64,000 nt of DNA from Eledone cirrhosa (Eukaryota). Shown piece by piece: positions 7,677 through 44,849 of the stretch (its first letter is position 1; every line of letters starts with the position of its first letter). The notes beneath the pieces were generated by a model. The model saw only the letters and a program-made list of their open reading frames with translations, was not told the DNA's origin and did not search any database. The position numbers and the translations under genes were made by a program. The stretch spans positions 89,032,001 through 89,096,000 of the forward strand of contig OZ024745.1 of the NCBI GenBank assembly GCA_964016885.1, given 5' to 3'.

Positions 7677-10600
7677 GGTCTGTTCGGACGTTCTTTTTGC
7701 TCGCTCCCAGTAAGTCGCTTTATTTGCCTGTTAAAATTATTTGTTGTTAAATATTTCTTGTTGTGTAAGTGATATATGCCCTTAGACTTTGCCCTGTGAA
7801 GGGGAAAGTATAATATTTGGGCCCTTTGGCCCAAATATTTAAACATTTTATTTGAAAAAAAAGAAATATGGCTGAGCCACGCCCCCCAGCAAGCAATATG
7901 TCTGGTGTCTTGTGACAACGGCGTAAAAGTTGAGAGGAGGGTTAGTGAAATTCATGCAGGAGCACCAACAACAAGACCAGTAGCGGCAGCAATAATGGTG
8001 ACGCTGAAAAAGGGGCCATTTCTTTCGCAGGTGTGGGCTGAAATATAGAGACAGTGCTAGTCACGGAGGAGGAGATGGCAGTCGCAAGAGCCATGGTGTT
8101 GAGAAACGAAAATAGAGTTTCCCTGAAACCTCCAACCGATTTCTTCAAAGACCAGCAACTGCGCACGGTGCCTTACCGCACCGTAAGCAAAATGTCAAAT
8201 CGGGTGGAGAGAGCCACGGAGGGCCTTGGAGTGCGACAGGGCACGCAAAACGCACATCACCCGAGGCAAAAAGTATGCCACACTATACGTACTTTTCGCC
8301 ACCCTCCAAGAGGCGAAGACTCACTCTTTGGAAACCTTAAAGAGTGAAGAGATAGTGTTGGTGCCCTCCTACTGCGGACAATTGTGAGTGTCAAAGTGAC
8401 CCAGGTCCCGCCCGACGTGGCCATACCTTGGCTGGCCGCGTCTGTACTGGCTGGAATCGAGAAGACCACCACACTGCAAATACAGAGAATGGGAAGAGAG
8501 AACTGGTCAGGAATAGGCATACAAATGATAATACAGACTGACTAAGGGTGCATCGAAGTCATTCCAGATATCATAGACCTAGAAGAAGGACTCCGACTCC
8601 CTATAAGCGTGGAAGGAAGGCGCCCAAAGTGCTATCTCTGCGAGCAGAAGGGTCACCTCAGGGCAGAAGACAGCCAAGAAGAGGGCTCACCCTCCTTCCG
8701 ACGCATGATCCGCTGCTACCGAGAGCAGGACAGGCAACAGGGGCAGAAGGCCCTTCCATGGTGAGTAGGACGGCAACGTTCGTGGAACCCATACAAAGGC
8801 CACCGAAACTAAAACAGCGGCAGCAGTGACGGCAACACCAACAGTCGCAGTAGCTACACCGTCGGCAAAATCGCCGGAGCGGGAAACACTACCACCACCA
8901 ACAGCAGTGGGGCGCACACCCCTCCCAGACGCCACGGAATCTGACATGGAGTATGAGTCGCGCAGGGAAGTGGCAAACGGTCTGCCACAAAAAACAAAAG
9001 AGGAAAAACACCTTAGCTTCACCCTCCAAAAGTGAAGGCAGACAAAGAGGTCTAAGCTCTGCAAGGAGACTTGCAGCAACACCACCACAAGCAACACTAC
9101 CAACAACAACCACACCAACAACACCAACATGGCAAACACAACAAAACACACACACCCAACAGCAACAAGAAAACAGCAACAAAGTCACCCCCCCCCCCCC
9201 CCCCAAAAAAAAGGTTCACAGCCATAAACATGGCAAATAAAGAACTCTTACAACATATAAAGCAGCACACAGACATCAGAGAAAAAAACTACTACACCCC
9301 ACCAACACCAAGAATTCTCCCGACAAACATAAGCATCGTTGAAATCAAAATAGAACAGTACACTTTTAAAACAAAAATTCCCCAACGCAGTTGGAGACTT
9401 CAGCAGGTCGGTTACCAAGAGGATATACACCGACATCCTCTTGGAAATACCCATGACCAGCCAAAGGGACGGTTCTACTGTACCCTCACCACACGATCAA
9501 GGTAAATGATCCTTTCTCACTTGCCCCGTTTCTCATCCAATATGGCCGTACTTAGAATAGGCAGTACGTGGCCTGGGGTCATCTTGGAAGCAGGGTCAAC
9601 TGCTCAACGACCTCAGGTCACTAAACATAGATGTGCTGGGCATCAACGAGATCAGAATTTCCGAAGCCTTCGCACCGATTTTCTGTGACTACGATGTATA
9701 CTCATCTCCCAGCCGTCCAGGATCAGGAGGAAGGGTGGCAGTGCTTTTTCGGAGAGGCTTGGATCTCGCCATACTGGCCATCTTCCTGGACACAGAAGGT
9801 AAGTCAGTGGTGTTGTACGTGACCTGCAGCGAAGGCAATGTTTTCAGGCTAGTAGCCGTCTACGCCCCAACTGGGGCAGGACGGCCAGATTTCTTCAGAC
9901 GTCTAGAGACCTTTCTTGGAACGTTCCGCACTTTAGTATTAGTGGGCGACTGGAACGGTATCTTAGATGTACGTTGGGATTATGTGGGGCTAGTAGACAG
10001 GGCAGGAGGGTTTCAAAGCCTCAACAACCTGCTCAGACATTTTAAACTGTCTGACAGGTATAGACTGGATTATCCGAATGTGCCAATGTGGACATGAGCA
10101 AACCGCATCGGGTCATCCATTTAGATAGGGTATTCTGTAGGGAAACAGATAAGGCTAGTGTAGGTTGTCCACAATTTAAAGTAGTCGCCTACACGGACCA
10201 CAAATTTGTGATCTGTGAAGTTACTTAGATAGATTCCATAGGCAAGGGCCCGGCTACTGGAAGCTGAACGCGTCGTTTCCGGCGCGCAAAGCTTACAGAG
10301 ACCGGATTAGCGAATTAGTTAAGCGTGCGTTGACGGGTGCGATCGTCAATACCAGGTGGTGGTTTACCCCGAAAAGGGCTGTTAGAGTAGAATCGATAAG
10401 GTTTAGCAGAGGAGTAGTGCCAGAGAAAAATATAGTAGTAGGAGAGTGAGTTAGAAAGCAAGAAGAGGCGTTTAGGAGAGGAATCGCAACCGACGAGCTT
10501 GCGGCGAGATTGGCACCCGACCAATTCTTCAACGCAAAGCATGAAGGCTGCGTTGTCAAAGCTAGAGCGCGTGCTCTAAGACACGAGGGGACGAAAGCCG

Positions 10601-13101
10601 TTCAATGGGCCCGGGTGGTGGAGGCGCGACGTGGCAACAAGTCCACAATTCGGTCTTTGCCTGATCAAAACGGGTGCATGTTGCTCGAATCCAAGCAGAT
10701 GTGTGCGGCTTTTCAACAGCACTTTGGTCAATTTTTGCGAAAGGCCGTTAACAGCAGGTGAAATACGGGAAGCGATGTCTGACTGCACGAGTCGTAAATC
10801 GCCAGGTTTGGATGGTCTGCCCTACGAGCTATATGCGTATATGCCAGACTTGTTCGGCGACCTCTTGGCAGATGTCTACTGTAACTGGCAGCAGAACGGG
10901 AGCATTACCAGTTTTGTGAGCCGGGGAGTGGTGGCGCTGGTGAGAAAAGACCCGAAGAAGGGGGAAGTTATAGACCACTTCAGGCCCATAACTCTGCTAA
11001 ACGCAGAGTTTAAGATTTTGGCCAAGGTGTTAGCTAAGAGATTCGTGGTTGTCGACGGTGATCTGGTGGGAGAGGCACAGAGATGCGCCATCCCGGACAG
11101 ATCCATCCTCCATCTCATGCGATACATCATAGAGAGGGTGGTTAAGGAACCTGGCACGGGTGGGGCCCTGATCAACTTGGATCAATCTAAAGTATTTGAT
11201 AGGGTCGACCATCGTTACCTGGCTGCGGTCCTCGAGGCGGCCGGCTTCGGGCCCGTTTTTAGGGGCTGGATGGCTGCGATGCACAGCGACACCTGCTCGA
11301 TTGTGAGGGTGAATGGTCACCTGTCACAGCCTTTCAGCACCATGCGCTCGGTCCGCCAAGGTTGCTCCCTCTCGTCCCTCTTGTACGTACTGGCCCTAGA
11401 GCCGTTACTGCACAAACTGGAGACGATTTGGCGGGGTCCCACGTGAACTGGGATGCTGGAGATCCGTGTCAGCTTACGCCCATGACGTCACCGTGGTGGT
11501 TTCAATCACCAAACACGTCCAGATGCTCGGCACCGCTCTCAAGGAATACGAAGCGGTGCCGAGCAAAGGTAATCCAGGAAAAGTCGGTGGGCTTGCAACT
11601 CGGCAACTGGAGAGGCAAGTCCATGCCGCCCGACAGCGTCGTGCGGCGCTGGACGGAAGACCTGTTAAATTGCTCGGTATCTGGTACAGTCCGGACCTCC
11701 AGATGGAGAAAAACTGGACCGAGTTTACGAGCAGGGTGGCCTCTCACACCCAGAAATGGGCCGAGAGGAGGTTGTCACTGAAAGGTCGGGCGGAGGTGGC
11801 GAATGCGTACATAACCTCCGTCATCTGCTACGGCCTGACCGTCGTACCTTGCGCCCTCCCACCTCTGACCAAAATAGAGTGCCTTCTTTTCCGCTTTTTG
11901 TGGAATGGACGTGCTCCTATGGTTAGACGATCCATTTGTTGTCAACAAGGAAGACTAGGCATGCCGTGGATGATGATGTCAAACATGCGCTGATGCTGCG
12001 ACATCTCTGGTGCTTCCTTGACGGTGAACAGGTGTGGTCGCCGTTTGCCAGACGCGCTTTTCCCCAGCTCGTCTCCTTGACGGAGCTGCAGTCCTGGATC
12101 AGGAAAAGACCGAGGGATAGCGCTTGGAAGCTGGAATGTCTCCAAGCGCTCATCGCCCTCTACCAGCTGGGCACTAGTATCGGTGGGACATCCACCTCGG
12201 CGTTCTAAAGAGGGCTAGGGGAGGGAAATAGCAACGACGTTATCGGGGAGACCCTGGGCGTCGAAGACGATCAGCTGTTCGCTCTCTTCAAGAGAACTTT
12301 CAGACCGGGGCCTATGGACAACTGCCAGACATCCCTGGCCTGACAGTGCTACTGGGGAGCGTTGCCGATTCGGGATGAGCTCTACAAGCTAGGAGGTTCT
12401 GTCAGCCGAACCTGTCCGCGATGCGCGCAGGGCGACGAAACCGTCCTGCACGCACTCGTTCAGTGCCCGAGGATTGCTGTCTTGTGGAGCTATGTCGAAG
12501 AGCTGCTGTCGCGTGTAGGACGGATCCGGTTATCGACTGAGTCCATTGTATAGTTAGCTTCTCCCTCCTCCTTTAAATAGGAGCAAGGGCAGGCAGTTTT
12601 CATCTGCCTGGTGGCCATGGCGAAAGAGATTGTGTGGTGGACAAGGTTGAAAGGGTTGAAGACTGACATTTTCCTCTCCAGCCAATCCCTGATTAACTTT
12701 TTCAAGTTTCATTTGAAGAGGAAAATCAGGGTGGAGAGTGCTGTCTTCTAGTAAGTTTGTTGAAAGGTGGGTGAAAGTAGCGAGTCTGGTCCGAGTGAAC
12801 GGGCCCGCTCTGAATATACGCCTGTAGACTGAGGAGTGGAAAAAATTGAGAGAAGGCGCTTGCCCTGGTGGTCAGGGTGGCCGTGGTCTTTTGTGTGGTT
12901 TTCACCACGAGTGACCCTCGGAGGTTTCCCCACTTCTTGGGAAATTTTGTTGTTTGAAATTTGTTGGATTTCTAGCCCGATTTTGTTATAACCTGTTTAC
13001 ACGACCAAAACCCACTTTGTATAGTCCTGTACTGTTCTGTGCCGTCTCTAATGTTTTTCTTCGTGTCAACCCGTGTGGCCAATAAAGAAACTATTATTAT
13101 T
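7677..13101 (+). mobile_element. Tx1/L1-clade copy 2, full length, decayed
   Basis: Leader from GGTCTGTTCGG, ORF1 ATG 7868 with zinc-knuckle remnant GRRPKCYLCEQKGH (~8615-8660), ORF2 9542-12827, AATAAA 13081, (ATT)n tail. Confidence 0.9.
9542..12827 (+). pseudogene. Tx1 ORF2, copy 2
   Basis: VYAP/VGDWNG (APE); KSPGLDGLPYELY, FRPITLLN, VRQGC, SAYAHD (RT, catalytic motif mutated); CPRCAQGDETVLHALVQC; multiple disruptions. Confidence 0.9.
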
Positions 13102-13104
13102 AAT

Positions 13105-13290
13105 GTGGATTGGCAGTATCAGTAGAGAGTCGGACGCCATGCTTTGACGCATGGAGTTACGGCCCTTGCCATTCTGAGTTCAAATCCCGCCGACGTTAAC
13201 TTTGCCTTTCATCCTTACGGGGTCGATAAAATAAAGTACCAGTAATGCACTGGGTAATTGCTGGCTTTGTGCCAAAAGTAGAAACAATTA
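13105..13290 (+). mobile_element. Near full-length SINE at the Tx1 copy2/copy3 junction
   Basis: Same family as 1926-2111; embedded in (ATT)n on both sides. Confidence 0.92.
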
Positions 13291-13304
13291 TTTTTATTAT
13301 TATT

Positions 13305-16300
13305 GGTCTGAACGGATGTATTTCGCTCGCTTCCAGTAAGTCGCTTTATTTGCCTGTTAAAATTATTTGTTGTTAAATATTTCTTGTTGTGTAAGGGATA
13401 TAAGCCCTTAGAGTTTGCCCCGTGAAGGGGAAAGTATAATATTTGGGCCTTTTGGCCCAAATATTTGAACTTTCTTTTTACAAGTTAAAAAATTTACTGA
13501 AAAAAAAAAACATGGCTGAGCCACGCCCTCCAGCAACATGTCTGCTGTCGTACGACAACGACGTAGAAGTTGAGAAGAGCGCTACAGCGAAATTAACACA
13601 CATTGATAACACAAACACCACCACAAGCAATGTAAACAAAGACACCAATGATACCAATGAGAACTCTAATTGTGAAAAAAATGAAAGTAACAGCGACAAC
13701 GAAAATACAGATAACAAAAAAATAATGACAAATGCAACAATATCAACACCACTAAAATAAAAACAAATACCAACTGCACCGAGAACAACGATGGCAACAA
13801 AGACAACAATGATAACAGCGACAGTGATAACAACAACACAAACAAGAACAACTACAACGACAACAACACCCCCAACGAAAACAAGAAGAATACATTCGCT
13901 GCGGCAGCAGCAAAAAAGAGGCCATGCTTCAACATGGACCTCTCAAAGAAAGATGAAAAGTTGGCGCAGGAATGGAAGCTCATCAAGCAAGAGAAAACCT
14001 GGGCCAACTTAACTGTCCCGGTAGAAGCTATTGAGGCAGTGGAGCGCAGAACGGTGCATTATAGATGCATCTCAGCACAAACCAAAAGGGCAGCTATAAT
14101 CCCACAAGAAGATGTCGAAGTCGCGCTGAGGTGCATCAGAGAAGACACCGAATACATAGAGAGGGGCAGACAGTACGGCACCATTTCGGTGTTGTTCAAG
14201 TCATAAGCCCTCGCTATGAAACACGCTAAGACTCCTTGCAAAACCAGTAAGGTCATAATGTACCCCTCCCACGTGGGAAAAATAACGGCCTGTCTCCGCA
14301 TTCCCAGAATCACCCCAGGACTTGACATGTGGTGGCTTCTGGGCTGTGTGATTGTGGAGGGGACGGATACCGTCCCTATAGAAGTGACCAGAACGGCCAT
14401 AGAGGACTGGTCCGGGGTTGACCAGGAGATCCTTCTCCAGATCAGGCCCGAGAATGTGAAGACAATCCCGCACCACATCCGCATTCAGAATGGGACGGTC
14501 ATTCACATTATGACCCAAGGCAAAAGGCCGCAGTGTTTTGTTTTTGGGGGAAAAAAACCCATTTGCGAGCCTTCTGCCCTCCACTGCTGAAAGAGGCAAG
14601 GGGTGGAAAGGCTCCACTGCTGCCAAGGCCGGGGCGAGGACCACAACCAACACCACCACCGGCAAAACCACCAACAACAACACCAATAGAAAGACCACCA
14701 CCAACATTGACCACCCAGGGGGGAAACGAGGAAAGCTGTCAAATTCCCTCTCCCCCCTAAAATACACACACCAATAAAACCATAAACATACATACAGACA
14801 CACTTACAGACACAGACCCCTCATCTACCAGTAGTGAAGATGAGGGAAAACCAAAATCCCCCAAAATACAAAAAAAGGAAACCCAAAAAGAAAAAAAAAA
14901 ATCAACAAAGCACAAAATCACCCACTAACATCTCTCCAATAACACCAACATCAACACCACCATCACCATCACCAGAATCCCCCAAACGCAAACAACCTAA
15001 ACAGACGCAAGAACAAATATACACACAAACATCTGAAACCACAGACACCGCACTCAAAACAAACACAGACACAACCGAAACAATACCACCAAAACCATCA
15101 CCATCACAGCCACGCAAACAAATAAAATCACACCAACAAAAAATACAAAACTTCGTGCTCGTCAGGAGGGCCAACAAGGAACTGATGGCCCTCGTAGCAC
15201 GAAGTTAAAATATACAGAAAGAGGGGGACATTTTTAAATCGAGCACATTTCGCGTGCGGAAAGATTTGGTTCTGGTGCGAATGTCGATCGAATTATACAA
15301 AGAAATACGAGACAGCTTTCCTCGGGACGTGGGAACCCCGAACGTAAAACAAACTTCAAGACTTTTAAAGGGGTTCCCAAAAGAAACCCCACCAACTATG
15401 GAGGTCGAACCACCCGACATTAACAAGAGCCTGGAAGGTAAGGAAAACTTTCCTCTCTCTCTCTTTTTAACCTGCCAACATGGCCGTATTAAGAGTAGGA
15501 TGTTTAAATGTTCGAGGCCTGGGATCGTCTTGGAAGCAGGGTCACCTGCTCAACGACCTCAGGTCTCTAGAAATGGATGCAATTGCCGTCAGCGAGACCA
15601 GGATTTCCGTCACGCGTACACTAGCCCCCATTTTCGACGACTATCAGATCTTTGCATCTGTTAGCCGGCCGGATATGGGAGGCGGGGTGGCAGTGCTGTT
15701 TAGGAAAGGCCTGGATCTCGAGGTAAGGTCGATCTTCCGGGACCCGGACGGGAAGTTGGGGGTCTTGGACGTGAACAATAACGATGGTAATCCTTTAGAC
15801 TGGTGGCCGTCTATGCTCCTAATGGGACAGGACAGCCGGACTTCTTTAGACGCCTGGAAGCCTTTCTGGGTTCGTCTCGCCCTTGACTGTTAGCGGGAGA
15901 CTGGAATGACATCTTAGACTCACGCTGGGACTGTGTGGGAGTATCCGATAGGAGTGGGGGGTGCAAAAGCCTCAAGAATCTGATCAGCCAGTTCCAACTG
16001 TCTGACAGGTACCGACTAGATTTCCCTAATAAGCCAGTGTGTACCTGGACTAACCGCATAGGGTCATCTAGATCGTATATAGACAGGATATTCATTAGGA
16101 AAAAAACCCAGAAATAGTGTAAGCTGTCCACATTTTGAAACGGTCGTCTATTCAGATCACAAGTTTGTGATCTGTGTGGTCGACCTAGATAAGACGCGTA
16201 GGTTAGGACCTGGTTACTGGAAGCTAAACATTTAAATTCCGGTACGTAAGGCTTATAGGGACCAGGTCAACAATTTAGTTAAGAAAAATTTGACAGGGGG

Positions 16301-18690
16301 AGTCGTCAACAATAGATGGTGGGGAGCTCTCAAAAGGGAGATTAGAATAATGTCGATAGAGTTTAGCAAAGAAGTAGCGTTAGAGAAAAATAGAAAGGAG
16401 GGGGAGTTGGTAGTTAAGTTAGACGAGGCTATAGGTAGTGGCATTACAACTGACGTGCTAGCGGCGAGAATGGCATTAGACCATTTCTTCAATGCGAAAT
16501 ACGAAGGTTGCATTGTCAGAGCTAAGGCGAGTGCTCTGAGAAACGAAGGAACCAAAGCTGTTCGATAGGGCCGAGTGGCAGAGGCGCAGCGTGGTAATAA
16601 AACCACGATTCTGTCTTTGACGGACCGAGACGGACACGAGCTGAGCTATTCCAAGAGGATGTGTGAGGCCTTTCGCCAACATTTTGCTCGGTTGTTCGGG
16701 GGAAGTAGCGGGTCAGAGATGGTGGCGGACTTCAGTCTCTACCTCGATGGCTTGACGCAACTCTCGGCGGCTGGCGCTGGGCGCTGCGAAAGGCCAATTA
16801 CTTCAGCCGAAGTACCTGGAAGCTGTCCTCGGGGCGGCTGGCTTCGGCCCCGTCTTCAGAAGCTGGATCGCTGCAAAGCACAGCGACACCTGCTCGATGG
16901 TCAAAATTAATGGCCACCTCTCGGAACCGTTTGAGGTCTCCCGATCGGCCCGTCAAGGGTGCCCTCTCTCCTCCCTTCGAGGCTTTACTGCGGAAGCTGG
17001 AGCTGTTGCAGGGCATCCCGCTCGAACCGGGACGCGGAAAGGCTGTGTCGGCTTATGCGGACGACATCACCGTGATGGTGTCGGACACCTCAGAAGCGAG
17101 GTGGTCGGCAACTTATTGGAGGAATATGAAAGGTTGACGGGAGCAAAACTTAACCCGGAATAGTCGGTGGGCTTGCAACTCGGCACCTGGAGAGGCAAGT
17201 CCATGCTGTTCAACAGCGTCGTTAGGCGCTGGACGGACGGACCTGTAAAGTTGCTAGGGGTTTGGTTCGGGCCAGACCTCCAGGTGGATAAGAATTGGGA
17301 CGAGGTGACGGGCAGGGTAGCCAGTCTCACCCAGAAATGGGCTGGGATGAAGCTATCACTGAAAGGTCGGGCGGAGGTGGCGAATGCGTACATCGCGTCT
17401 GTCATCTACTACCGTCTGACCGTCGTCCCTTGCCCCCGTTCGCGCCTCGCCATCTTGGAGCGGCTCCTCTTCAAATTATTGTGGAGGGGTCAGTTTCCGC
17501 TGGTGAGGCGGTCCATCTGCTGCTAGTACCCTCTACGTGGAGGGCTAGGCATGTCGTGGCTAATGATGCGCAGGCACGCGCTGAGGCTGCAGCATCTCCA
17601 GATATTCTGCCTAAACGGTGAACAGGTGTGGTCGCCGTTTGTCAGACGGGCCTTTCCGCAGCTCGTTTCTTTGACTGAGCTGCAGTCCTGGGTCAAGAGG
17701 AGACCGAGACTAGGTGACTGGCATCTGGAATGTTGCGAGGCACTCACTGCCCTCTACCAGGCGGGCAATGCAGTCAGTGGAACTTCCACTCTCGTGTTCT
17801 ATAGAGGATTAGTGGTGGGCAAGTGCGACGACGCCCTCGGAGAGGCTCTGGGAGTCAACGAAGTCGAACTAATCAGTCTGTACCGGAGGACTTTCGAGCC
17901 GGGGACGATGGATAATTTCCAAAAATCCCTCGCTTGGCAGTGCTACCGGGGTCACTGCCGGTTCGAGATAAACTCTACAGGCACGGAAGCGCTGTCAGAC
18001 GGTCCTGCCCGAGATGCGCGCAGAGCGACGAAACCGTTCTGCACGCACTCGTCCAGTGTCCGTGCATTATTGACTTGTGGAGTTATGTTGAACAGCTGTT
18101 GTCGCGTGTAGAACGGATCCGGCTATCGACCGAGTCCATAGTGAAGATCGATCCGCCGCCTTCTTTAGGCTAGAAAGGGCAGGCAATTTTCCTCTGTCTG
18201 GTGGCAGTAGCGAAAGAGGTTGTATGGTGGGCGAGATTGAAAGGACTGAAGACAGACACTTTTCTCTTCGGCCAATCCCTCATCAACTTTTTCACGTTTC
18301 ACTTGGAGAGGAAGGTGAGGGTGGAGAGAGAAGTGCTGCCCCCCAGTACATTTGCTGAAAGGTAGAAGAATGTGGCGAGAATGGCCCGTGTGAGTGGGCC
18401 TACTCTTGTCATGCAGTTGTAGGTAGGTAAATTTGAAGAGGAGAGGGGTGCCCTTCCAGGGTGGTCTCGAAGCGTCGGGTCGTTCAGGACTTGTGGGGTA
18501 CCTGAGCGAACCCTAGGTGGTCATCCCCCCCTATTGGGGAATTTTTTCTTGTTGTAATTTTATTGTTACTTTATTGTTACTTTGTTATTGTTACTTTGTG
18601 TAAAACCCCACTGTCCCAGTCTTGTGTATTGTCCCCTATATGTCGGCCCTTGTGGCCAATAAATGAAATCATTATTATTTATTATTATTT
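13305..18690 (+). mobile_element. Tx1/L1-clade copy 3, divergent subfamily with an internal RT deletion
   Basis: Leader nearly identical to copy 2; ORF1 ATG 13512; ORF2 15480-18422 jumps from ITSAEV to YL.AVL near 16815; AATAAA 18658; (ATT)n tail. Confidence 0.9.
15480..18422 (+). pseudogene. Tx1 ORF2, copy 3
   Basis: MAVLRVGCLNVRGLG, AVSETR, SYIDRIF, SAYADDIT, CPRCAQSDETVLHALVQC. Confidence 0.9.
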
Positions 18691-18691
18691 T

Positions 18692-21600
18692 TGAATGCTA
18701 TGGTTGACGGAGGCTCGTTTCTGTAAGGTATTGTAAATTTTGACCGCTATAACAATTGTAAATTGTTTAAAACTTTATCCAAATTGTAGACAAAAACACC
18801 CTCCTCCTCGCGAGAGGGGTCTTTCTGCACGTTATTTGGCCCTTCGGGGTTAAATAACCGCTTATTGGGGTTTTGTGCCCAATATTTATTTTAAACCCAA
18901 AAAAAACATGGCGACGAATAAGAATTTTCATAGGTCACTCCCACTCATTCCGTCTTCTTCTTCCTCAATCCTCACTACAGCAGAGAGAAGATTGTCTCTC
19001 TCCCTCCGTTCTCTTTCGCAAGCGACGCCAGTAAAGAAAAATCACGTAGAAAGCGTGCAACATTTCTCCACAACGGCGAAAAAGGTGTGCGGGAAATACG
19101 AAAACCCATTTCATTCGTCTGATGTCATGAATAATAGCAGTAGCAGCCGTAATAACAGCAGCACCAGCAACAGTGACAAGGAAAACAACAGTAGCAACCG
19201 CAAAAGCATCAGCAGCAGCATAAACAACAACAGCATTAGCAGCAACAGCAACAACAACAGCAGCAGCAGCAACAACAACAACAACCACAGCAACAGCGGT
19301 CGCGGCAGTAGTCGTAGTACCTGCAGCAACAACAAAAGTAACAGCAGCTCTGACGACAACAACAACAACAACAGCAGCAGCAGCAAATAAAAACCAATCT
19401 CGTTTGCAGGTATCGCAAAGAACCTGGAAACCATCCTCATAACAAATGAGGAATTACAGGAAGCGAAGAAGATGATGACGAAAACCGGACACCGAGCAAT
19501 CTGCAAGGCAGCCGAAATATTTTTCGAAACCCAACAGCACTGTACGGTCACTACCGTAGATTAAGCACAAAATCCCGTAGGGTTGAAAGAGCCACAGAGG
19601 CTCAAATACAAAAAGCCTTAGGGTCTGTGTGGCAGCGGAAAACGCACATCACCCCAGGCAAGAAATATGCTACCGTAGACGTGCTTTTTGCCACACCCCA
19701 GGAGGCAAAGGCTCAATCCTTAGTGACCCTAAGGAGCGAGGAAATGGTGTTGGTGCCCTCATACTACGGGCAAAAAATTGTGAAGGTGAAACTGACCCAC
19801 GTCCCCGTCCCCCCGGGATGGCCCCTTCTTGGCTGGCCGCGTCTGTCCACGTCGGAATCGAGGACTAAACAACTGTACTGCAAGTACAAAAAAAAGTAAG
19901 AGAAGATTGGGTCGGCACCTCCATTGAGATGTTAATCCAAACCAACCAGGAGTGCATCGAAGCTATCCCGGATGTGTTAGACTTCGATAACGGCACTCAA
20001 CTGCCCATAAGTGTTGAGGGCAAACGCCCGAAATGCTTTCGCTGTGGTTCGAAGACTCACCGCAGAGCCTTCTGCACCTAGGCCCCACGGCTACCAGCAA
20101 CAGGACAAGCGGCAACCAGGAACGATAGGTCCGTGGCACCCATACGCACGCCACGGAAATCAAGAAGAGCAGCAGCAGTGGAAGTATTAACAACAACAAC
20201 AGTAATACCAAATGTAGCTGCAACAGTGACTCCACTGCAAACATCACCAACAACAACAAGTGAAAGAGTGGAGCTGGTACCCCTCCCCGACCTCACAGAA
20301 TCAGACATGGAGTGTGAGGTGGGAGAGGGATGGCAAAAGGTCGTAAGAAGGCACAAACGCAGAAGCAGCGCATCGTCGCCTTCGAAAAGGGAGGAAAGAA
20401 ATGAAAAAAGGGTAAAGGCTACTGCAAAGAGACTCACAGCAGCAACACCACCAACACCATCACCACCCACACTAGCACAACCATTACCACCGGCGACAAC
20501 CCCACCGCCAACAACAACAACACCTTCAACACCACCACCGTAAGCACCAACATCGCAAACACAACAACAAAACACACACACCCAGCAACAACGACAAGAA
20601 AATAGCAGAACCACACCCCACCCCCAGAAAAACAAATGCACGGCAATAAATACACACAACAAGAAACTAATGACTTACATAATTGAACACACAGACATTT
20701 CACAGCACGACTACATAATACCAGCACCAATCAAAACGCCAACGAACATTTGACTGCTAAAATAGCACAGAAACAATACACAAACATTAAAACGAAATTC
20801 CCCAACGCAGTTGGTGATTTCAGAGACCTAGGAGGGACTCTCAACCGGAGAGTATATTCGGACATACACATAGAAGAGCCGACGACCAGCTGAAGGGACG
20901 ATTCAATGGTCCCTTCACCAGACGATCAAGTGAAAAGTGATGGAGAAACCATCCTTCCTCTACGAAAATTACGGTAAGTGGTCTTTCCCATCTTTTCCAC
21001 TCCATTTTAAACATTACCTCACTCAGAATAGGCAGCATAAATGCGCGTGGCTTGGGGTCGTTATGGAAGTAGGGCCACCTGCTCAACGACCTCAGGTCAC
21101 TAAACATAGATGTAGTGGCCATCAGCGAGAACAGAATTTCCGAAGCACGGGCCTTAGCACCGATCTTCGGCGGCTACGATGTGTACGCATCTCCGAGCCG
21201 TCCTGGATCGGGAAGAGGAGTTGCTGTGCTTTTTCGGAGAGGTTTGGATCTCGTCATACGGGCAATCTTCCTGGATCCAGAGGGTAAGTTGCTGGTGCTG
21301 GACGTGACCAGCGGAGACGGGCAAGCTTTCAGGCTAGTGGCCTTCTATGTCTCTCTCAAGAACAGGGCGGCATGATTTCTTCCGGCGTCTGTAGACCTTT
21401 CTTGGAACGTCCCGCTCTTTAGTGTTAGTGGGCGACTGGAACGGGATCTTAGATGCACGCTGGGACTGTGTGGGATTAGCGGATAGGGGTGGAGGGTGCA
21501 AGAGCCTCACCAACCTACTCAGGCTTTTTGAACTGTCTGACAGGTACCGATTGGATTTCCCGAATGTGCCAATGTGGACTTGGACAAATCGCATAGGGTC

Positions 21601-24600
21601 ATCCAGATCATATCTAGATTGAATATTTTGTAGGCCAATAGATAGGTCTAGCATAGGCTGTCCACAATTCAAGATAGTCAGCTACACGGACCACAAATGG
21701 TCTGTGTGTTTGGCTTAGATAGGCTTCATAGACGAGGACCCGGCTACTGGAAGCTAAACGCGTCCTTACCAGCGCGCAAGGCCTACAGAAACTGGATTAG
21801 CGAACTAGTTAAGCGGGCTTTGACGGGGCCATCGTCAACAACATGTGGTGATTTGCTCTGAAAAGAGCGATTATAATTGAACCCATTAGGTTTAGTAAAG
21901 CTTTAGCAATAGAGAAAAATAGAGCAGAGGGAGAACTAGTAAGAAAATTAGACGAGGCGCTTAGCAAAGGCAACGCGACCGACGTGCTTGCGGCGAAATT
22001 GGCCCTTGACCAATTCTTCAATGCAAAGCACGAAGGCTGAGTTGTCAGAGCTAGGGTGCGTGCTCTCAGACACTAGGGGACGAAAGTCGTTCAATGGGCG
22101 CTAGTGGCGGAGGCGCGTCGTAGCAACAAAGCCACGATCCGGTCTTTGGTGGACCACGACGGGCGCATGCTACTCGATCCCTGGCAAATGTGTGAAGCTT
22201 TTCAGCGACACTTCGCTCAGCTGTTCGACGGCAGCGGTGGGCCGGGTCGAGGGATGGACTTTAGTGTCTACCTCGACGGACTGCCGCGGCTCTCGGCCAC
22301 TGAGGCGGAGTGTTGCGAAAAGCCGATAACAGCCGCTGAAGTACGGGAGGCAATGACTGGCTGCACAAAGGGTAAATCGGCTGGTTTGAATGGTCTGCCC
22401 TATGAACTTTACGTACAGATGCCAGACTTGTTCGGAGGCCTCTTGGCGGACGTCTACTGCAACTGGCAACAGAACGGGAGAATTCACAGCTCTGTGAGCC
22501 GAGGAGCGGTGGCACTGCTGAGAAAGGATCCGAACAAGGGGGATAACATAGATAATTTCAGGCCCATAACTCTGCTAAACACCGAGTTCAAGATTTTGGC
22601 CAAGGTGCTAGCAAAGAGGTTGGTGCTTGTCGTTGGTGGTCTGGTGGGAGAGGCGCTTACATGCGCCATTTCCGACAGATCCATTCACGACAACCTCCAC
22701 CTCATGCGATACATCGTAGAGAGGGTAGCTAGGGAACCTGGCACGGGTGGGTCGTTGATCAATTTAGATCAGTCGAAAGCTTTCGATAGGGTCGACCATC
22801 GTTACCTAGCGCCATCCTCAGGGCGGCTGGCTTTGGGCCCGTCTTCAGAGGCTGGATCGCTGCCATGCATAGCGACATCTGCTCTGTGGTGAGAGTAAAC
22901 GGTCACCTTTCGGAACCGTTCACCATCATGCGCTCGGTCCGCCAAGGATGTCCCCTCTCGTCCCTCTTGTACCTATTGACTCTCGAGCCATTACTGCACA
23001 AACTGGAGACGTTGAGGGGCGTCCCGCGCGAACTAGGATGCGGAAGATCCGTGTCAGCATATGCGGACGATGTCACCGTAGTGGTGTCGAACGCCAAACA
23101 CATCGAGGCGATCAGCACTACACTAAGAGAATACGAAGCGGTGACAGGAGCAATGATCAACCATGAAATGTCAGTGGGCCTGCAGCTCGGCACCTGGAGA
23201 GGCAGGTCCATGCCGTCCAACAGCGTCGTCGGACGCTGGACAGACGGACCGGTTAAATTGCTAGGGGTCTGGTTCGGTCCGGACCTCCAGACGGACAAAA
23301 ACTGGGACGAGGTGACGAGCAGGGTGGCTTCTCTCACCCAGAAATGGGCGGAGAGGAAGCTATCGCTGAACGGTCGAGCGGAGGTGGCTAACGCGTACAT
23401 CGCGTCTGTCATCTGCTACCGTCTGACCGTCGTAGTTTGACCTAAGCCCCACCTGACTGCGCTGGAGCGTTTGCTCTTTCGCTTTTTGTCGAAGGGACGC
23501 GCTCCGATGGTCAGGCGGTCCATCTGCTGTCAACACCCGCTACGTGGAAGGCTGGGAATGCCGTGGGTGATGATGCGCAGACACGCGCTCAGGCTACGAC
23601 ATCTCCACCTCTTCCTCGACGGTGATCAGGTGTGGTCGCCGTTTCCTAGACACGTTTCCCCAGCTCGTTTCCTTGACGGAGCTGCAGTCCTGGGTCAAGC
23701 GAAGACCGAGAGGGAGCGCCTGGAGACTGGAATGTCTTCAGGCGCTCACAGCCCTCGACCAATCGGGCAATGTGATCGGTGGAAACTCCACGTCGGCGTT
23801 CTATAGAGGATTAGTTGAGGGGAAGTGCGACGACGTGGAAACTCTAGGCGTCGACGAAAATCAACTAGCCAATCTCTTTGGAAGAACTTTCGGGCCGGGA
23901 CCTATGGACAACTTCCAGAAATCTCTGGCCTGGCAGTGCTACCGAGGAGCCTTGCCAGTTCGGGATAAACTCTACAGGCATGGAGGTGCCGTCAGCCGGG
24001 CATGTCTGAGATGCGCGCAGGGCGACGAAATCGTCCTGCACGCACTCGTCCAGTGTCCGAAAATTGCTGACTCGTGGGTTTATGTCGAACACCTGCTGTC
24101 GCGTGTAGGACGGATCCGGCTATCATCTGAGTCCATCGTGAGGATTGCCTCGCCCTCTTCCTTTAGCCGGGAAGGGCAGGTAGTTTTTATCTGTCTGGTG
24201 GCCATAGCTAAAGAGATAGTATGGTGGACACGTTTGAAATGGCTGAAGACGAAAACTTACCTCTTCGGTGATACCTTGATTGACTTTTTCAAATTTCATT
24301 TGAAAAGGGAAATCAGAGTAGAGAAGGAAGTGCTCTCTTCCCAGCATTTTGTTGAAAGATGGTTGAGAGAAGCAAGAATGGCCCGAGTGAATGGGCCTAC
24401 TCTGAGTATATATCTGTAAATTATAGGTGGAAAACTGGGAGAAGGCACTTGCCTTAGGTGGTCAGGGTCACTGTGGCCTTTTACTGGGCTTTCTCCACAA
24501 ATGTCCCTCCGAAGACTCCCCCCAATTGGGGAATTTTTCATTGTTATTTTTTTGTTACATCCTGTTTTTGTTTTTTACACGCAGCAATGCCCATTTGTAC

Positions 24601-24687
24601 CGTCCTGTATTGTCCTGCACTGTCCTTAATGTCCACTTTATGTAAACCCTTGTGGTTAATAAAGAAATCATTATTATTGTTGTTATT
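18692..24687 (+). mobile_element. Tx1/L1-clade copy 4, full length, decayed
   Basis: ORF1 ATG 18908, CCHC knuckle GKRPKCFRCGSKTHRRAFC (~20018-20075); ORF2 ~21013-24419 with start mutated to ATT; AATAAA 24658; (ATT/GTT)n tail. Confidence 0.9.
21013..24419 (+). pseudogene. Tx1 ORF2, copy 4, closely similar to copy 1 ORF2
   Basis: Complete APE-RT-CCHC motif series including VRQGCPLS and SAYADDVT; several stops and frameshifts. Confidence 0.9.
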
Positions 24688-27600
24688 CCTTGAATCTCAG
24701 TCATTGATGTTGGTTAACTGGAAAGTCCGTTGGATTGAATATCAAGCCACTACCTGCAGCCTCAGATATTCAGGACGTATCGGAGGGTTCTTGCTGTTCC
24801 AAGCAAGCATGCCTTTTGAAGCGTTCCAAAAAGCGTGAAGGGCCCGATTTTCTTTAACCATCCCTGGAAACTTTTGGAGATAGTCCCCAGTGCGCCTATG
24901 ACAATCGGGATCACTTTGACTTCATGGCAGTTCCACATCCTTTTCACCTCCCACTTTAGGTCCTGGTATCGGTTAATTTTCTACCTCTCCTTCTCTTGCA
25001 CTCTCGTGTCGAACGGGCAGGCCACATCCACAATCAGACACGATCTTTTTTCTTTGTCCACAACCACCAGGTCAGGTCTATTGTGTTCCAGTTTTTTGTC
25101 CGTCTGTATCCTAAAATCCCACAGCACCTTCACCTGATTGTTCTCCATCACCGCCTCTGGCCTATGCTCATACCATTTCTCAGAATGTGGTAAATTGTTT
25201 ACTTTGCACAGGTGCCAGTGGATCACCCTGCCCATCACATCGTGTCTCCAGCCCTTATAGTGGGTCTGGGCTAGGTGTTTACACTCGGACACAATATGAG
25301 CCACAGTCTCCTCTCTCTCTCCACAGATCCTGCACAGTGGGCTAGCCTCCTCCTTGTAAATATGGTGCTTCAACCACTTCGTTTTGAGGGCCTGCTCCTG
25401 CGCAGCCATTAGCATTCCTTCTGTACCCTTTTTGAGGTCTCCTCTTCTCAACCAGTTCCATGTCTGTGGATCTCTAAATTCAGTTTTCTCAAAGAAGGTA
25501 CTATGAAGGGATTTTCCCTTAAGGCTGCTCTTCCTCCTTGATGTTATTTCCTCCTTGGACATGCCCAGGCCTACTGTCCCCTCCTTCAGTACAGTTCTGA
25601 GCATTGGCTCCTTACCATAGGTCACGTATTTGTATAGGTTGTTTTTCTCCATCTGAACACAGTCCTCTATGCTGATAAGACCTCTTCCACCCTCAGATCT
25701 CCTTAGGTAGAGTCTATCGACATCACTCCTCTTGTGGAACATGTTGTAGATAGTCAATAGCTTCCTAGTCTTCCTATCCATTTCTTTTTGTTCAGCAACA
25801 TTCCATCTCAGAATTCCCGCACTGTACCTAATAATAGACACAGCTCGGGAATTTACTGCGCTTATGGCATTTCTGCTGTTCAGATGTGACTTCAATACGC
25901 TCCTTACTCTCCGAATGTATTCAGTTCTTAACAATTCCTTCATTTTTTTGTTCTTTATGCCATCAGCCTCCAGAACGCCCAAATACTTGTATCCTTCCTC
26001 AGAGTCAATTTCCTTTATCATCTCACCTGTTGGTATCTGGATCCCGTTACTTCTGCTCAACCTACCCCTCCTCATCACAATGACTCCACATTTACCAATA
26101 CCAAACTGCATACATATATCACTGCTGAAAATACGGACAGTGTCAACAAGCACATCCAACTCCTTCTCACTTTTCCTGAAGAGCTTAAGATCGTCCATGA
26201 AGAGGAGGTGATTGATGGTAAGCTCTCCCCTTCCCAACTTGTATCCTGCTCTCACTTTTCGCAGCATAATGGTCAAGGGCATCAGGGCAAGGACAAACAA
26301 CAGAGGGGACAGGCTATCTCCCTGGAAGATACCTCTCTTGATCTTCACGCTTCCCAAGGATACTCCAGTTGATGTCAACTCTGTCTCCCAGGACCCCATA
26401 ATCCTGCCTAGCAACTGTCTGATGTTATCTGCCACCCTGAAGATCTCCAGGCTTTTGGTGATCCAAGAATGAGGCACCATGTCAAATGCCTTTCTGTAGT
26501 CTATCCATCCCATGGCAAGATCAGTGTGTCTCCTCCTGCAATTCCCCATTACCATCTTATCAATAAGTAACTGGTCCTTTGTACCACGTGACTTCTTTCG
26601 GCATCCTTTCTGTTCGTCCGGTAACAAGTTGTTTGTGTAGAGGTGATGGTAGATTTCCTCAGACACAATGCTCGTCAACAGTTTCCACATTACGGACAGA
26701 CATGTGATAGGTCTATAGTTGGTAACATCATTACCCATGATTCGGTCTTTCATTATCAGAACTGTGGTACCTTTTGTCAACCACTCTGGCACCTCACCCG
26801 ACACCAAGCAGTCATTGAACATGGCCGTCAGCTTCGGGTGGAGGGATGTTAAATGTTTAATCCAATACCCCTGCACACCATCTGGGCCTGGTGATTTCCA
26901 GTTGGTTAGTTTTTTGGCCTGCCCCTTAAGAGTTTCAACTGTGATACTCAAATCAGTTTGTTGTTGTGCCTGCTCACCGATCTCCCTCTGTACTGTCTCA
27001 ATCCACCCTGCCTGGACATTATGTCTAACATCCTGCTCCCATATTCCTCTCCAGAATGTTTTAGTTTGCTCCGCCCCAGGGATCAAGTCGTTGCCTCTTT
27101 CTTTCCCCTCAAGCTGTCCAAACAGCATCTTCTGGTTGTTGTCGAACATGCGGTTCTGTTTATACTGACTGACTCTGTTCTCGTATCGCCTGATTTTTGC
27201 ACTCTTTGCTACAATGCGTTGCTTCAGTTCCTCTATGATAATATTTTGCTTTTTCCTCCTAGTTTTGTATTTTATTTCCAGTCTATTTTTAGTGCCTATG
27301 TTTTTTAGTGTCCCATTCAGTAGTGACTCAAGCTTTCCTATGTCATTTCTCATTTCCCCGATTTGCCCACTCAGTCGCTTCTTCCACCACAGCTCTGCTC
27401 TTTCTTGTCTGTTGCTTCCTATCGCTTTTATACCAAGTAGTTTCCTCACCGTATTTGCTGTTGCTTTGAGGATATTGTTGCACTGGTGAAGGCTCCTCGC
27501 CTCAAGGTATGGGATGACTTTGTTTACCTTAGCTGTTGTTTCTTTTAACTTTTTCCTGTCTACAAATCTTAGGTTCATAGGTCTCCCACTATCATTGTTC

Positions 27601-28290
27601 AATTCATCTACCACTAAATTTAGGATGTCAACCGAATCTTGTCCTAGCCCGTCAGCATTCATCTCCTCAGTGGCCGTATCTCTGTTCCAGGTATTATTTA
27701 TCTCAGTATTCAGATCATTGTCTGCTTCGGGTGGTTCCTCCGTTCTCAGGACCTCTTCACCTTCATTTCCCACTGGCTCGCTTGTCTGGCATACTACACC
27801 CGCCATCTCCAAGCCATTCTCTCTGCTCAGTTCCTCCAGTTCCAGCTCGCTTATCCACCCATTAGTTCTTATTACCCGAGCCTGCCCGGCCAATTTTTGT
27901 TCATCTAATTTAAATAAACCAATCTCGTTCCAGATGTTATGCATCCGTCTCCTGTAGCCCCTCTCCTTGGGGTTACTTTTCAGGTAACATTGCATAGCAG
28001 TTCTATTCAATTCTTTCGTCCAGTTGGTTCTGGCCCCTTTCCTTCTTCTCCTTCCTCCAACATCAGCAGTATTTGGTTGACAGTCAGGTTCCTGCTGCTG
28101 AGCCAGGGGGCACCTGTTGGGTGAGAGTCTGTCACATGACGTTCTAGTCTCCATTTCACCGTTATTCGAACTGTTTATGTTCGATATTTAAACACTCTTA
28201 TCGAGGATTGGCGAATGTATGGTTACATAGCCATCTGTGGATCCGCCATTCCACTTGGCCCTTGTGTGGCATTATCACCACGCTGTATAC
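24688..28290 (-). mobile_element. R4/Dong-clade non-LTR retrotransposon (RT plus restriction-like endonuclease)
   Basis: Single ORF, no APE domain; 3' end abuts (TAA/CAA)n on its sense strand; Dong-type elements are established TAA-repeat targeters. Confidence 0.88.
24762..28154 (-). CDS. R4/Dong polyprotein; 1057 aa open, then one in-frame TAG (24981-24983) before the last ~70 aa
   Basis: N-terminal WTKELN..YRRRMHNIW domain; KSPGPDG, YRPITCL, IDYRKAFDMVPH, GIFQGDSLSP, LFMDDLKL; CRICGEREETVAHIVSEC; RHD; RPDLVVVD..IVDVACP (PD..D RLE); in-frame continuation YQDLKWE..VIPIVIGALG. Confidence 0.88.
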
Positions 28291-28329
28291 TAACACACAT
28301 AAACAAACAAACACACAGGCAGAAAGGGC

Positions 28330-29212
28330 CCCCAAAATGAATAAGCATAAGTTTCATCGTAATGTAGTGTTCGAATGTCTGACTTAGTTTTTGTTTTTTA
28401 AGTTTTAGTTTTCCCCCCTCTTCTCTGTCCGTCCGCCTGCTTCTCTCTTCATTCTTATTTTCTTTACGTTTTTGGGTTTTTTTTTGTTTTTTTTGTTTTT
28501 CTCTGTTTGTTTTTCTCGTTTTTTGCTGTTGTTGCTGTGCTGCTTTGGTTTTGTTGTTGTTTTTTCTTTTTTCTTTTGAGTCTATCTATATATTTTGATG
28601 CCTTCCTCTTTTTTAGCAGTAGGGATTCTATAATGTGGTGGCAGCAGCCAGCTGAGAGAAGTGGGTGACTGGCGGCGGTAGCGATACTGAGACAGTGGTG
28701 GTGGTGATGTCGATACCGAGGCAGTGGTGGCGGTGATGTGACCGTATTACTGTAGTGATGGTGCTGTGGCGTTGGTAGCAGTGAAGGAGTGAAGGGGTGG
28801 TGGCGGCGGTGATGGGATAATGGTGGTAATGATGGCCGTAGTGAGCGGTGGTGGTGAAAATGCCGTTATCTGGCTGTTGTGTTTAGTGTACACAGGTGAT
28901 GGGGTGGGTGGTGTATCTAGTTTCTGGTGTTGGTGAGTTTGGCTGTTCTATATAGTGTAGACAGAGGAGAGGGGGTGTTCTTCTTCCATTTATAGCCATT
29001 TTCTTTTTTGGATATACAGTGTACAATACAAAGTTGAATATTTGAATGTTTGAGCCTTATAACAATATATTTTGGGTCCGAATTTTTTGGGGCTCAAGCC
29101 GTGTGCTTTACGTAGCATTTGTACTAAGAGTTGTTATTTCACAAATGATTTAAATATGTTAAAAATTCAAAACTTACGGGAGCGATTTCATGACCTCCGT
29201 CACCTCGTGCGT
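28330..29212 (-). other. Tx1-like 5' leader plus degenerate ORF1-like low-complexity region upstream of the Dong element
   Basis: 213-nt leader, A-run before ATG at 28999 (MAINGRRTPPLLCLHY, compare copy 3 MAEPRPPATCLLSY), TCGCTCCCGTAAGT shared with copy 2/3 leaders, then T/P-rich and A-rich tracts. Confidence 0.55.
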
Positions 29213-29234
29213 CTTCTTCTTCTTCTTCTTCTTC

Positions 29235-29273
<39 letters not shown>

Positions 29274-29276
29274 TTA
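29213..29276. repeat. (CTT)n(ATT)n microsatellite
   Basis: Seen directly. Confidence 0.95.
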
Positions 29277-29280
29277 AATG

Positions 29281-29548
29281 TCGGTGGATTGAAAGTATCG
29301 GTAGAGGGTCGGATGCCATGCTTTGACGTATAGAGTTACGGCCCTTGCCATTCTGAGTTCAAATCCCGCAGTATCGGTGGAGGGTCGGACGCCATGCTTT
29401 CCAGCATAGTTACGTCTCTTTACGATCTGAGTTCAAATCCCGCCGAGGTTGACTTTGCCTTTCATCCTTACGGGGTCGATAAAATAAAGTACCAGTAATG
29501 CACTGAGTATTTGCTGGCCTTGTGCCTAAAGTACAAACAATTATTATT
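29281..29548 (+). mobile_element. SINE with a duplicated tRNA head (two subfamilies joined)
   Basis: Head to B-box 29281-29368, then a second head and complete body to the ATT tail. Confidence 0.88.
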
Positions 29549-29834
29549 TTTTTTTTTTCTTTCTTTTGCCTTTGTCATGACAATATATATTGAAAAGATA
29601 TATCGTACTGTCTTGAAATTATTCTCAAGAAGCCAATTTTTTTAATGATGACAGGAATATTTGAAAGAAATCGATAAATTGTAAGAATCTATATTATATA
29701 ATCAAGGAATGACCTCCTTTCTTAATACAACCCAACTAATCCACCTTTAGAATATCTACATGTCATTTTCCTTCACGATAATGTAATGTCACCTACATAT
29801 AGATATCTACACCACATTCTAATGTTTTTAGCCA

Positions 29835-32391: not shown

Positions 32392-33540
32392 ACTCAGACT
32401 CAGAAGCTCCCGCGTCTTGCGACGCATGAGGCAATCATAGTGTTCCACCGCGTTCGGTCAGCAGCCAGTTGCACAGCGTATCGCCATTGTCTGTTTGTCG
32501 CTCGCAGGTCCCTCTCAACTGTCTGGCGCCAGTTCATTTTGGGTCGCCCTCTCCGTCTGCTACCCTGTGGGTTCCATTTAAGTACTTGGTTTGCCAGTCT
32601 CTCCGGGGGAAGTCTCAAAGCGTGCCCAAACCCGCCCAGGTGTCGCTTGCAGATGGCAGAAGAGACTAGCTGCTGGTTGGTGCGGTTCCTGACTTCCTGG
32701 TTTGTTGCATGGTCACTCCATTTAATCCCCAGGATCTTTCGCAGACACCTGGAATCGAATGCGTCCAACTTCTTCTCTTGGCTGGCCTTAAGGTGCCATG
32801 TTTCACTTCCGTACAAGAGTGTGGACAGCATGTTGCTGTTGTAGAATCTCATCTTTGTTTTGAGGGTGAACTTCCTGCTCTTCCAGATCTTGACAAGCTG
32901 GTTAAATGCTGCTGAAGCCTTTCCTATTCTACATTGCAATTCACTGTCCATGGCGCCCCCATTGTCAATGGAGCTTCCTCGGTAGGTGAAGTTGTCCACT
33001 ATCTCCACCTCCCCCTGTTCAATGAAAACACTAGTTGGTGATGGGTGTGTCCCAGATAACATGCTTTTGGTCTTCTTAGCACTGATATTGAGACCTAAGC
33101 TTCCTGCTTCGACATTGATATTGTTCATAATGATTTGCAGGTCAGCTGTGCTCTCTGCAAGTGCAACAATATCATCCGCAAAGTCCAGGTCAGACAACTT
33201 TTGCTCTTCCACCCAAGATATACCCTGGTCTTTAGACGCTCTTCTTAGTACCCCTCTTCTTAGCACCCAGTAACCACCTCAAACCAGTCACTCTAACCAT
33301 CCTCTGTCCGTATGCAGCACTTGGAGTTTGCGTAAATCTGTTTGATTGCCGAAATGACTTTCTGAGGCAGACCATACTTATGCATGATGCTCCAGAGTGA
33401 CGGTCGATGAATGCTATTGAATGCTTTGGTGAAATCGATGAAACTGACGGCGAGGGGGCCTCTGGAATTCGTTGTACCTCTCAATGATGCGGCGTGACGT
33501 AAAGATCTGCTCTGCACAGGAACGTTTTGGTCGGAACCCT
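32392..33540 (-). mobile_element. 5'-truncated RTE LINE nested in the Helitron
   Basis: GFRPKRSC, FIDFTKAFNSIHR, DLDFADDI, LLYGSETW, GSRRRGRP; (GTCTGA) tail; 8-bp TSD GCCTTGGA at 32384-32391 and 33541-33548. Confidence 0.88.
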
Positions 33541-43966: not shown

Positions 43967-44016
<50 letters not shown>

Positions 44017-44285
44017 AAAATATGTCTATAGAATCACCAGATAAAATATATACAATTTCCTCTCCCAATTAGCATAATTAACCATATAAAAAATCGAATA
44101 GACCAGGCTATAAGAATAAGGCTTCTATGATGAAATCTCCAACAAATAACCGAAACCAGCCCTTCGCGCCGGCTGCGACGGAATATTTATCGAATATTTC
44201 GACAGCGTAATCGCCCAGATATACAGTCAATTAAACAGAATTAGGTGTAAAATAAACTAGGAGAAAATAGAATACATTTATTTAC

Positions 44286-44358
44286 CTCGACCATGGTTTC
44301 GTCCGCATTCTAAGATATCCGATAATTCGGAACCCTGAGCACCGGACTCTTCAGGAGT
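44286..44358 (-). ncRNA. Type I hammerhead ribozyme (inverted copy)
   Basis: Reverse complement of the motif at 44776-44849. Confidence 0.8.
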
Positions 44359-44775
44359 TAGCTCAAATCTAGACAATACATTTTCCAAGTTTATATGGTT
44401 AATTATGCTAATAGGGAGAGGAAATGGTATAAATTTTATCTGGTGATTCTATAGACATGTTTTATGATATATAGCTCTGATTATTTAGTTTATTGACTTT
44501 TCATTGAGCCACAAAGTGACCCGTTGCAAAACACGTATATGTATGTGTGTATATATATATATATATATGTAAACCTTTATATGTACTAATCTCCCGTTAG
44601 GTTGAGATACAAATTTGGCTGTATTGTGCTGCGCTTTCTAGCCAAAAGCCACCAGCCGTAAGCAACTAACCACACTCCTTCCAACCTGACCGCTGCTACG
44701 TCACGATTCTTAGCCATTTTTGAATGTATTCTTGGCGCGATCACCTTGGAAAATTTATTGTCTAGATTTGAGCTA

Positions 44776-44849
44776 ACTCCTGAAGAGTCCGGTGCTCAGG
44801 GTTCCGAATTATCGGATATCTTAGAATGCGGACGAAACCATGGTCGAGG
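44776..44849 (+). ncRNA. Type I hammerhead ribozyme
   Basis: Stem I CTC/GAG; core CTGAAGA 44780-44786; stem II GTCCG/CGGAC with an internal TCCGA/TCGGA hairpin; GAAA 44834-44837; palindromic stem III ACCATGGT; GUC cleavage after 44845. Confidence 0.82.

Follow-up and report, generated by a model that had tools for sequence, protein, structure and literature searches.

A mobile, intron-bearing 5' cassette common to two distant R4/Dong lineages in Eledone cirrhosa

Contig OZ024745.1 of Eledone cirrhosa contains, between positions 89,032,001 and 89,096,000, a stretch of 64,000 nt (the window) whose minus strand carries a full-length retrotransposon fitting the description of R4/Dong long interspersed nuclear elements (LINEs) in PMC7998251. 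The element is headed by a leader of about 1 kb, and our firm result is that this leader is a mobile, intron-bearing 5' cassette common to two distant Dong lineages. One such cassette, with about 2100 intact copies, circulates between R4/Dong lineages that can no longer be aligned as DNA. An original prediction, made from the window alone, had taken the leader for the promoter and first open reading frame (ORF1) of a Tx1-type LINE captured by Dong. The genome searched here measures 3.0 Gb, and articles are cited by PubMed Central number. The features of the window on which the argument draws are the following; UTR stands for untranslated region.

29235..29276, minus strand: (TAA)n target microsatellite 5' of the Dong element
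29178..29236, minus strand: 5' terminus and predicted short first exon, beginning with GAAGAAG (in this copy a run of (GAA)n) and extending through TCGCTCCC
29172..29185, minus strand: TCGCTCCC followed by GTAAGT, a motif exact in one Tx1 family and holding the putative 5' splice donor (donor-exact junctions in copies L109-L112 and L119)
29003..29177, minus strand: intron-like, AT-rich GT-AG segment of 175 nt, colinear with Tx1 5' UTRs
28997..29002, minus strand: A-run and ATG, placed as the start of ORF1 is in Tx1 but opening only a short upstream ORF (38 codons in the window copy)
28283..28996, minus strand: non-coding low-complexity leader without ORF1 homology, rich first in ACC and then in A, with a U-rich tract and TACAG at its end
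24762..28154, minus strand: single R4/Dong ORF with an N-terminal R..WT region, reverse transcriptase, CCHC knuckle and PD..D..K restriction-like endonuclease
24670..24761, minus strand: short 3' UTR followed by a CAA/TAA tail; Tx1 copy 4 adjoins in tail-to-tail orientation
about 1630-7545, 7677-13090, 13304-18670 and 18689-24669, plus strand: four tandem Tx1-like LINEs (copies 1 to 4), with Exo_endo_phos, RVT_1 and zf-RVT matches

The leader as the 5' end of its Dong family

We searched the genome with 28200-29212, which returned 2272 candidates, of which 40 were scored and 30 fetched. Nearly the whole leader was covered by 40/40 scored matches, the 39 besides the window's own at 95-97%, and in 30/30 fetched copies the Dong ORF follows the leader across the same junction; the original prediction had named a leader joined to Dong at this locus only as the outcome that would speak against it. 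A diverged subfamily (B), with an ORF about 85% identical to that of the window's own family (A), has a homologous leader at 30/30 fetched loci. The leader is real and is the normal 5' end of its Dong family. The same counts support the proposal that it was inserted as part of the Dong transcript and travels with it. A recent or local chimera of Tx1 and Dong is excluded, because the leader has diverged into many variants.

The assignment of the element itself rests on its layout and target. A reverse transcriptase (RT), a CCHC knuckle and a C-terminal restriction-like endonuclease lie in one ORF (RVT_1 and zf-RVT matches), in which CRIC..H..SEC and RPD..D..P..K motifs can be read, and the R4/Dong target as defined in PMC7998251 was found in 30/30 copies, with (TAA)3 at most 70 nt upstream in all 30 and (ATT)3 in 0/30. 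The second lineage, C, is laid out alike; its N-terminal R..W[TS] region aligns with that of A, and no C2H2 finger was noticed there, as read from the alignment rather than from a profile or fold. The closest solved structures to the Dong protein are R2 proteins. An RT tree, made by a quick method with unnamed relatives only, sets A/B and C apart from the RTs of LINEs with an apurinic/apyrimidinic endonuclease (APE type). A premature stop at 24981-24983 interrupts the window ORF; copies elsewhere (L210, L220) are open through this region.

Several details proposed from the window hold in the sequence: 213 nt lie on the minus strand between 29212 and the A-run/ATGG at 28999, no TAA tract separates leader and Dong body, and TCGCTCCCGTAAGT (29185-29172) equals Tx1 copies 2 and 3 apart from one extra base. 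Two others hold in part. TGACGGAGG (29202-29194) does recur in Tx1 copy 4, but it is found in only 16/30 family-A and 0/30 subfamily-B copies, and TGGCGGAGG takes its place in 13/30 family-A copies. A (TAA)n(GAA)n flank can be seen, but GAAGAAG belongs for the most part to the 5' end of the element itself, since the sequence directly before the equivalent of 29212 is GGAAGAAG in 25/30 copies. The runs of (GAA)n between (TAA)n and the element start vary in length (L123, L147, L188, L194 and window 29213-29236), which suggests that the GAAGAAG terminus of the element slips when its 5' end is joined. The first ~220 nt probably serve as an internal promoter with its predicted core at 29178..29236, and the GGGAAGAAG end is where this predicted promoter would start transcription. 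Internally deleted Dong copies also occur: L094 consists of the leader and N-terminus joined to the 3' end, and L190 of the first-exon region joined to the middle of the ORF.

The leader is non-coding and holds no ORF1 module, and in this respect the original prediction has to be given up. In the 28/30 A copies having the ATG, its frame ends after 17-42 codons, and no frame remains open from one end of the leader to the other. Pfam gave no family of a structured RNA-binding or zinc-knuckle ORF1 domain in the leader. The part after the ATG was compared with the corresponding part of Tx1 (42 stretches): leader A scored as its shuffles did, leader B exceeded them only by an ACC run and leader C only by a piece of a short interspersed nuclear element (SINE). 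A peptide match with Tx1 that had been put forward is accidental, since the variable length of a C-run shifts frames among copies; B and C leaders encode other peptides than the window leader. That the leader lies next to Dong here by chance, or encodes a working ORF1, is a reading for which only its appearance at a single locus could be cited, and we consider it very improbable indeed: the former is ruled out by the junction common to all fetched copies, the latter by the short ATG frame and the want of a frame open across the leader. Entamoeba LINEs are assigned to R4. A separate 5' ORF is present in those whose nuclease is C-terminal (PMC2657916), so the premise that R4-clade elements always have a single ORF was too strong.

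Exchange between Dong lineages and the splice donor

The protein of lineage C is 31-35% identical to that of A, and blastn of C bodies against the A body gave no match in 5/5 copies. In a quick tree of 37 rows, without named references, C branches apart from A/B, and proteins of other assemblies stand between them. The 14-mer TCGCTCCCGTAAGT occurs 2189 times in the genome; from the first 100 matches we picked 40 sites by hand, favouring variants. The bodies behind these sites were A/B in 28 cases and C in 10, with one truncated, one unrelated and no Tx1. The leaders of C bodies share 76-92% identity with that of the window, some being closer to it than many leaders of A/B bodies. On a leader tree of 38 heads (37 of the 40 sites and the window; L190, L198 and L208 were left out) the body label changes six times, at least three of these changes being forced by branches of 95+ support, and several C copies change midway from an A-type to a C-type leader. 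Because body type changes so often on the tree and C leaders switch midway, the genomic copies show that the 5' module has been exchanged repeatedly between two Dong lineages, probably by template switch or nested insertion. This exchange is the demonstrably recent part of the history of the cassette. Four near-identical lineage-C copies (L127-L130, genome G000, contig C28, 114.44-114.46 Mb) stand in tandem with a spacing of 4955 bp.

The cassette contains an intron, as genomic copies of lineage C show. Among 20 matches without the G after TCGCTCCC, five were donor-exact (four events), 12 were point variants and three were unrelated; all donor-exact leaders are of lineage C type. In L111 and L112 the donor is joined to AAAATGG, and the GT-AG segment equivalent to window 29177-29003 has been removed precisely. 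Each of the two is 96.7-97.4% identical to unspliced copies and 94.2% to the other; being closer to unspliced copies than to each other, they are independent. The AAAG acceptor at the end of the GT-AG segment is present in 30/30 A copies, and TACAG|CG, a candidate second acceptor, in 29/30 A and 24/30 B copies; an acceptor-like site lies at the boundary of leader and body in both lineages. To judge from these genomic joints, GTAAGT acts as a splice donor, with precise loss of a GT-AG intron in two lineage-C copies. Splicing followed by reverse transcription has happened, but rarely: about 4 donor-exact events compare with about 2100 intact donors.

Other joints fit a spliced leader less well. 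L109 and L110, which represent one duplicated event, have the exact donor but rejoin 5 nt earlier, not at an AG, and L119, also donor-exact, rejoins about 800 nt further on, 9 nt off a pyrimidine-AG site. In the genome we found no A/B copies spliced to the downstream acceptor and, among 2 + 11 matches, no spliced Tx1 copies, these being point variants or other sequences. A looser search for spliced copies added none, with counts near those of the control (17 vs 24).

The joint of the L111 type is also present in contigs of run X1. The contig runs are of unknown kind, and their depth was not used as evidence; run X6 has no cover of the leader and is uninformative. In the small run X4 (window 28234-29181) contig depth is about 900-2200 over the leader vs about 80-240 in the middle of the ORF, the reverse of the pattern in run X1. 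This is only a lead towards short leader transcripts or non-autonomous derivatives, since the kind of run is unknown and contig depth cannot rank parts.

Kinship with Tx1 and the origin of the cassette

We lean, with some reserve, towards an ancient capture in which Dong acquired the first ~220 nt once from a Tx1 element that targets the same TAA/ATT repeats. Tx1 kinship of these nucleotides is moderately supported by sequence comparison, so that of the capture originally proposed a moderate statistical link survives and a recent, local origin does not. The 2189 occurrences of the 14-mer compare with 2 for its reversed control, and the first 100 comprise 96 Dong-type sites, three Tx1-type and one other. 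In one Tx1 family preceded by (ATT)n the 14-mer is exact and the match extends to as many as 16 bases; it lies about 24 nt from the start of that family, compared with about 37 in Dong. The segment from donor to A-run is of similar length in Dong and Tx1 (means 154-172 nt). In anchored alignments from which the motif and the A-run/ATG had been removed, the z values of Dong B were 4.9 with Tx1 type 1 and 3.9 with type 2/3, higher than any of 400 genomic pieces matched for composition; comparisons of Tx1 with Tx1 gave 5.4-5.7 for types 1 and 2/3 and 0.2-1.9 for type 4. The ATG is the start of ORF1 in Tx1 and opens only a short ORF in Dong, and therefore points to a Tx1 donor. An RTE-like family served as control: 2 of 20 fetched copies share a 5' end, which is of different design and lacks the leader architecture. 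A fragment of this LINE, a young family with 40 matches at 97% or more, lies at window 32400-33278 on the minus strand, and further loci are L229 and L232; the 5' UTR common to the two full-length copies measures about 500-600 nt and does not resemble the leaders of Dong and Tx1.

Other results speak against such a capture. Types A (the window's own) and C reach only z 2.0-2.9, and the background for the z scores consisted of generic AT-rich DNA rather than of other promoters or first introns. A type 2/3 profile gave no positive score on Dong, and a type 1 profile gave 4.9-11.3 bits on B, the top background being 9.4. Local alignment of the window leader with the four window Tx1 leaders was weak (p 0.01-0.55), and BLAST against the window Tx1 copies yielded only low-complexity or weak matches. 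The expectation that the leader also heads Tx1 bodies failed at the sampled motif sites (0/40), no close donor was found among the Tx1 types seen, and no ORF1 remnant rises above shuffles apart from ACC runs. Frog L1 families have GACGC and GAGCTCCG motifs at +30 and +40 (PMC5381506), so that host-set motifs can explain part of the match. We also looked for the leader with (ATT)n directly upstream, the Tx1 context; this gave 11 matches at 7 places, and all 7 aligned loci proved to be Dong copies. Two further observations concern Tx1 5' UTRs: a GGGCC-TTTT-GGCCC palindrome precedes the A-run (window about 7815-7840 and 13440-13465), and another Tx1 type (L116, L075) carries, near +25, GAAGCTCCG, which is similar to the GAGCTCCG motif of frog L1.

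A rival explanation is convergence, in which the leader is native to Dong (or came from a host gene) and resembles Tx1 because both were independently selected for the same core-promoter motif of the host, a donor that binds U1, an intron rich in AT and an ATG in favourable context. Of the 14 shared bases, 6 belong to the donor consensus, other Tx1 types here also contain GAGCTCC(G), the frog motifs lie at similar positions (PMC5381506), similarity at profile level is weak, with type A barely apart from background, and an ORF1 remnant is missing. Convergence accounts less readily for an exact 14-mer almost confined to Dong and Tx1 (99 of the first 100 matches listed), for colinear blocks outside the masked motif, for an ATG at the Tx1 ORF1 position in an element without a long ORF there, and for the RTE-like family having no such design, although the latter comprises one family and two copies. 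We regard convergence as an appreciable possibility, short of being the probable one; exchange among Dong lineages would hold under it as well.

Shared ancestry might also have run differently, with Tx1 type 2/3 taking its first 50 nt from Dong, or a third element or host gene supplying both. The exact match to only one Tx1 type, the excess of Dong-type over Tx1-type sites (96 vs 3 of the first 100 matches listed) and the lack of an established root would suit such a course. It sits poorly with the design shared by diverse Tx1 types, in which the ATG is the start of ORF1, and with Dong B, which resembles type 1, without the 14-mer, as much as type 2/3; we hold it to be improbable.

Under the capture from Tx1 that we favour, the route may be envisaged as follows. 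The (ATT)n before each of the four window Tx1 copies is Dong's microsatellite in the opposite orientation. Dong would insert at (TAA)n by target-primed reverse transcription, and template switching, or a 5'-truncated copy landing in the leader of another, could place a new body behind an existing promoter, which would be made easier where the elements crowd into shared microsatellite arrays. The Tx1 ORF1 that followed the captured ATG may then have decayed or given way to low-complexity sequence. Unspliced RNA would be the normal insertion template, as the proportion of donor-exact events to intact donors indicates, and splicing to the downstream acceptor could, in our view, strip the upstream ORFs and yield the translated message. 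It is tempting to speculate further that a Dong element with a restriction-like endonuclease (REL type) captured the promoter together with the first intron of an APE-type Tx1, that the cassette now circulates between Dong lineages with a common target, and that splicing separates the translated message from the unspliced insertion template, as in retroviruses; we advance this fuller scheme only tentatively and consider it doubtful as a whole.

Comparison with known elements and neighbouring sequences

The window element resembles the R4/Dong description in its one ORF, RT, C-terminal restriction-like endonuclease, (TAA)n target and the absence of any N-terminal zinc finger seen, and departs from it in a leader of ~1 kb with a used donor, common to two lineages about one third identical in protein. 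Dong-R4 and L1-Tx1 are among the recently active LINEs of octopus (PMC13282606), and octopus Dong is mentioned elsewhere (PMC9115989); the accessible parts of these two accounts describe no leader. In the literature searched, which left most subscription journals and Repbase reports outside, we found no account of an R4/Dong leader that is shared, spliced or Tx1-like or Tx1-derived.

L1 is known both for replacement of its 5' UTR and for recombination between families active at one time (PMC5381506, PMC5872511), and there too the promoter module changes independently of the ORF. The L1 changes take place within L1 and bring in new, non-homologous UTRs, whereas here one homologous module is found among R4-type lineages and may come from an APE-type clade. 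ORF1 shuffling in the Jockey superfamily (PMC4120745) offers a parallel for the proposed route, in which a 5'-truncated insertion into another element inherits its 5' part; in Jockey a functional ORF1 moves between APE-type clades, whereas in our case no ORF1 survives and the recipient is REL-type. Kibi and Koshi are microsatellite-specific Tx1 families (PMC4494074), and the Tx1 copies neighbouring Dong are likewise APE/RT LINEs with an ORF1 in a microsatellite, unlike them in having as target (ATT)n, which they have in common with Dong in the opposite orientation. Penelope keeps an intron near an internal TATA-less promoter (PMC2377424), an arrangement predicted here as well; it belongs to a different class, and splicing of the Dong leader is deduced only from rare intron-less genomic copies.

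Promoter turnover has so far been documented mainly within L1. If the capture from Tx1 is true, the cassette crossed the deepest divide among LINEs, that between APE and REL types, and shared target arrays would be sites at which regulatory modules are exchanged. A promoter of its own combined with splicing would also offer a testable handle on the transcription and translation of early-branching LINEs. For annotation, the 5' ends of these families will be a source of confusion in repeat libraries and RNA-sequencing counts.

Several other repeats lie in the window. A single SINE-like repeat occurs in or beside TAA/ATT tracts at 29280-29553, about 1912-2097 and 13101-13290, and a piece of it is fixed within the lineage-C leader. 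The region 48578-63997 is a satellite with a 27-bp unit in about 571 copies (90% match) and long repetitive open frames. An ORF on the plus strand at 35996-37015 matches DUF7041, which we take to be associated with gag regions of long terminal repeat elements. Finally, an inverted repeat of 388 nt, 98% complementary, lies at 44007-44394 and 44740-45127 with 345 nt between its arms and resembles a miniature inverted-repeat transposable element.

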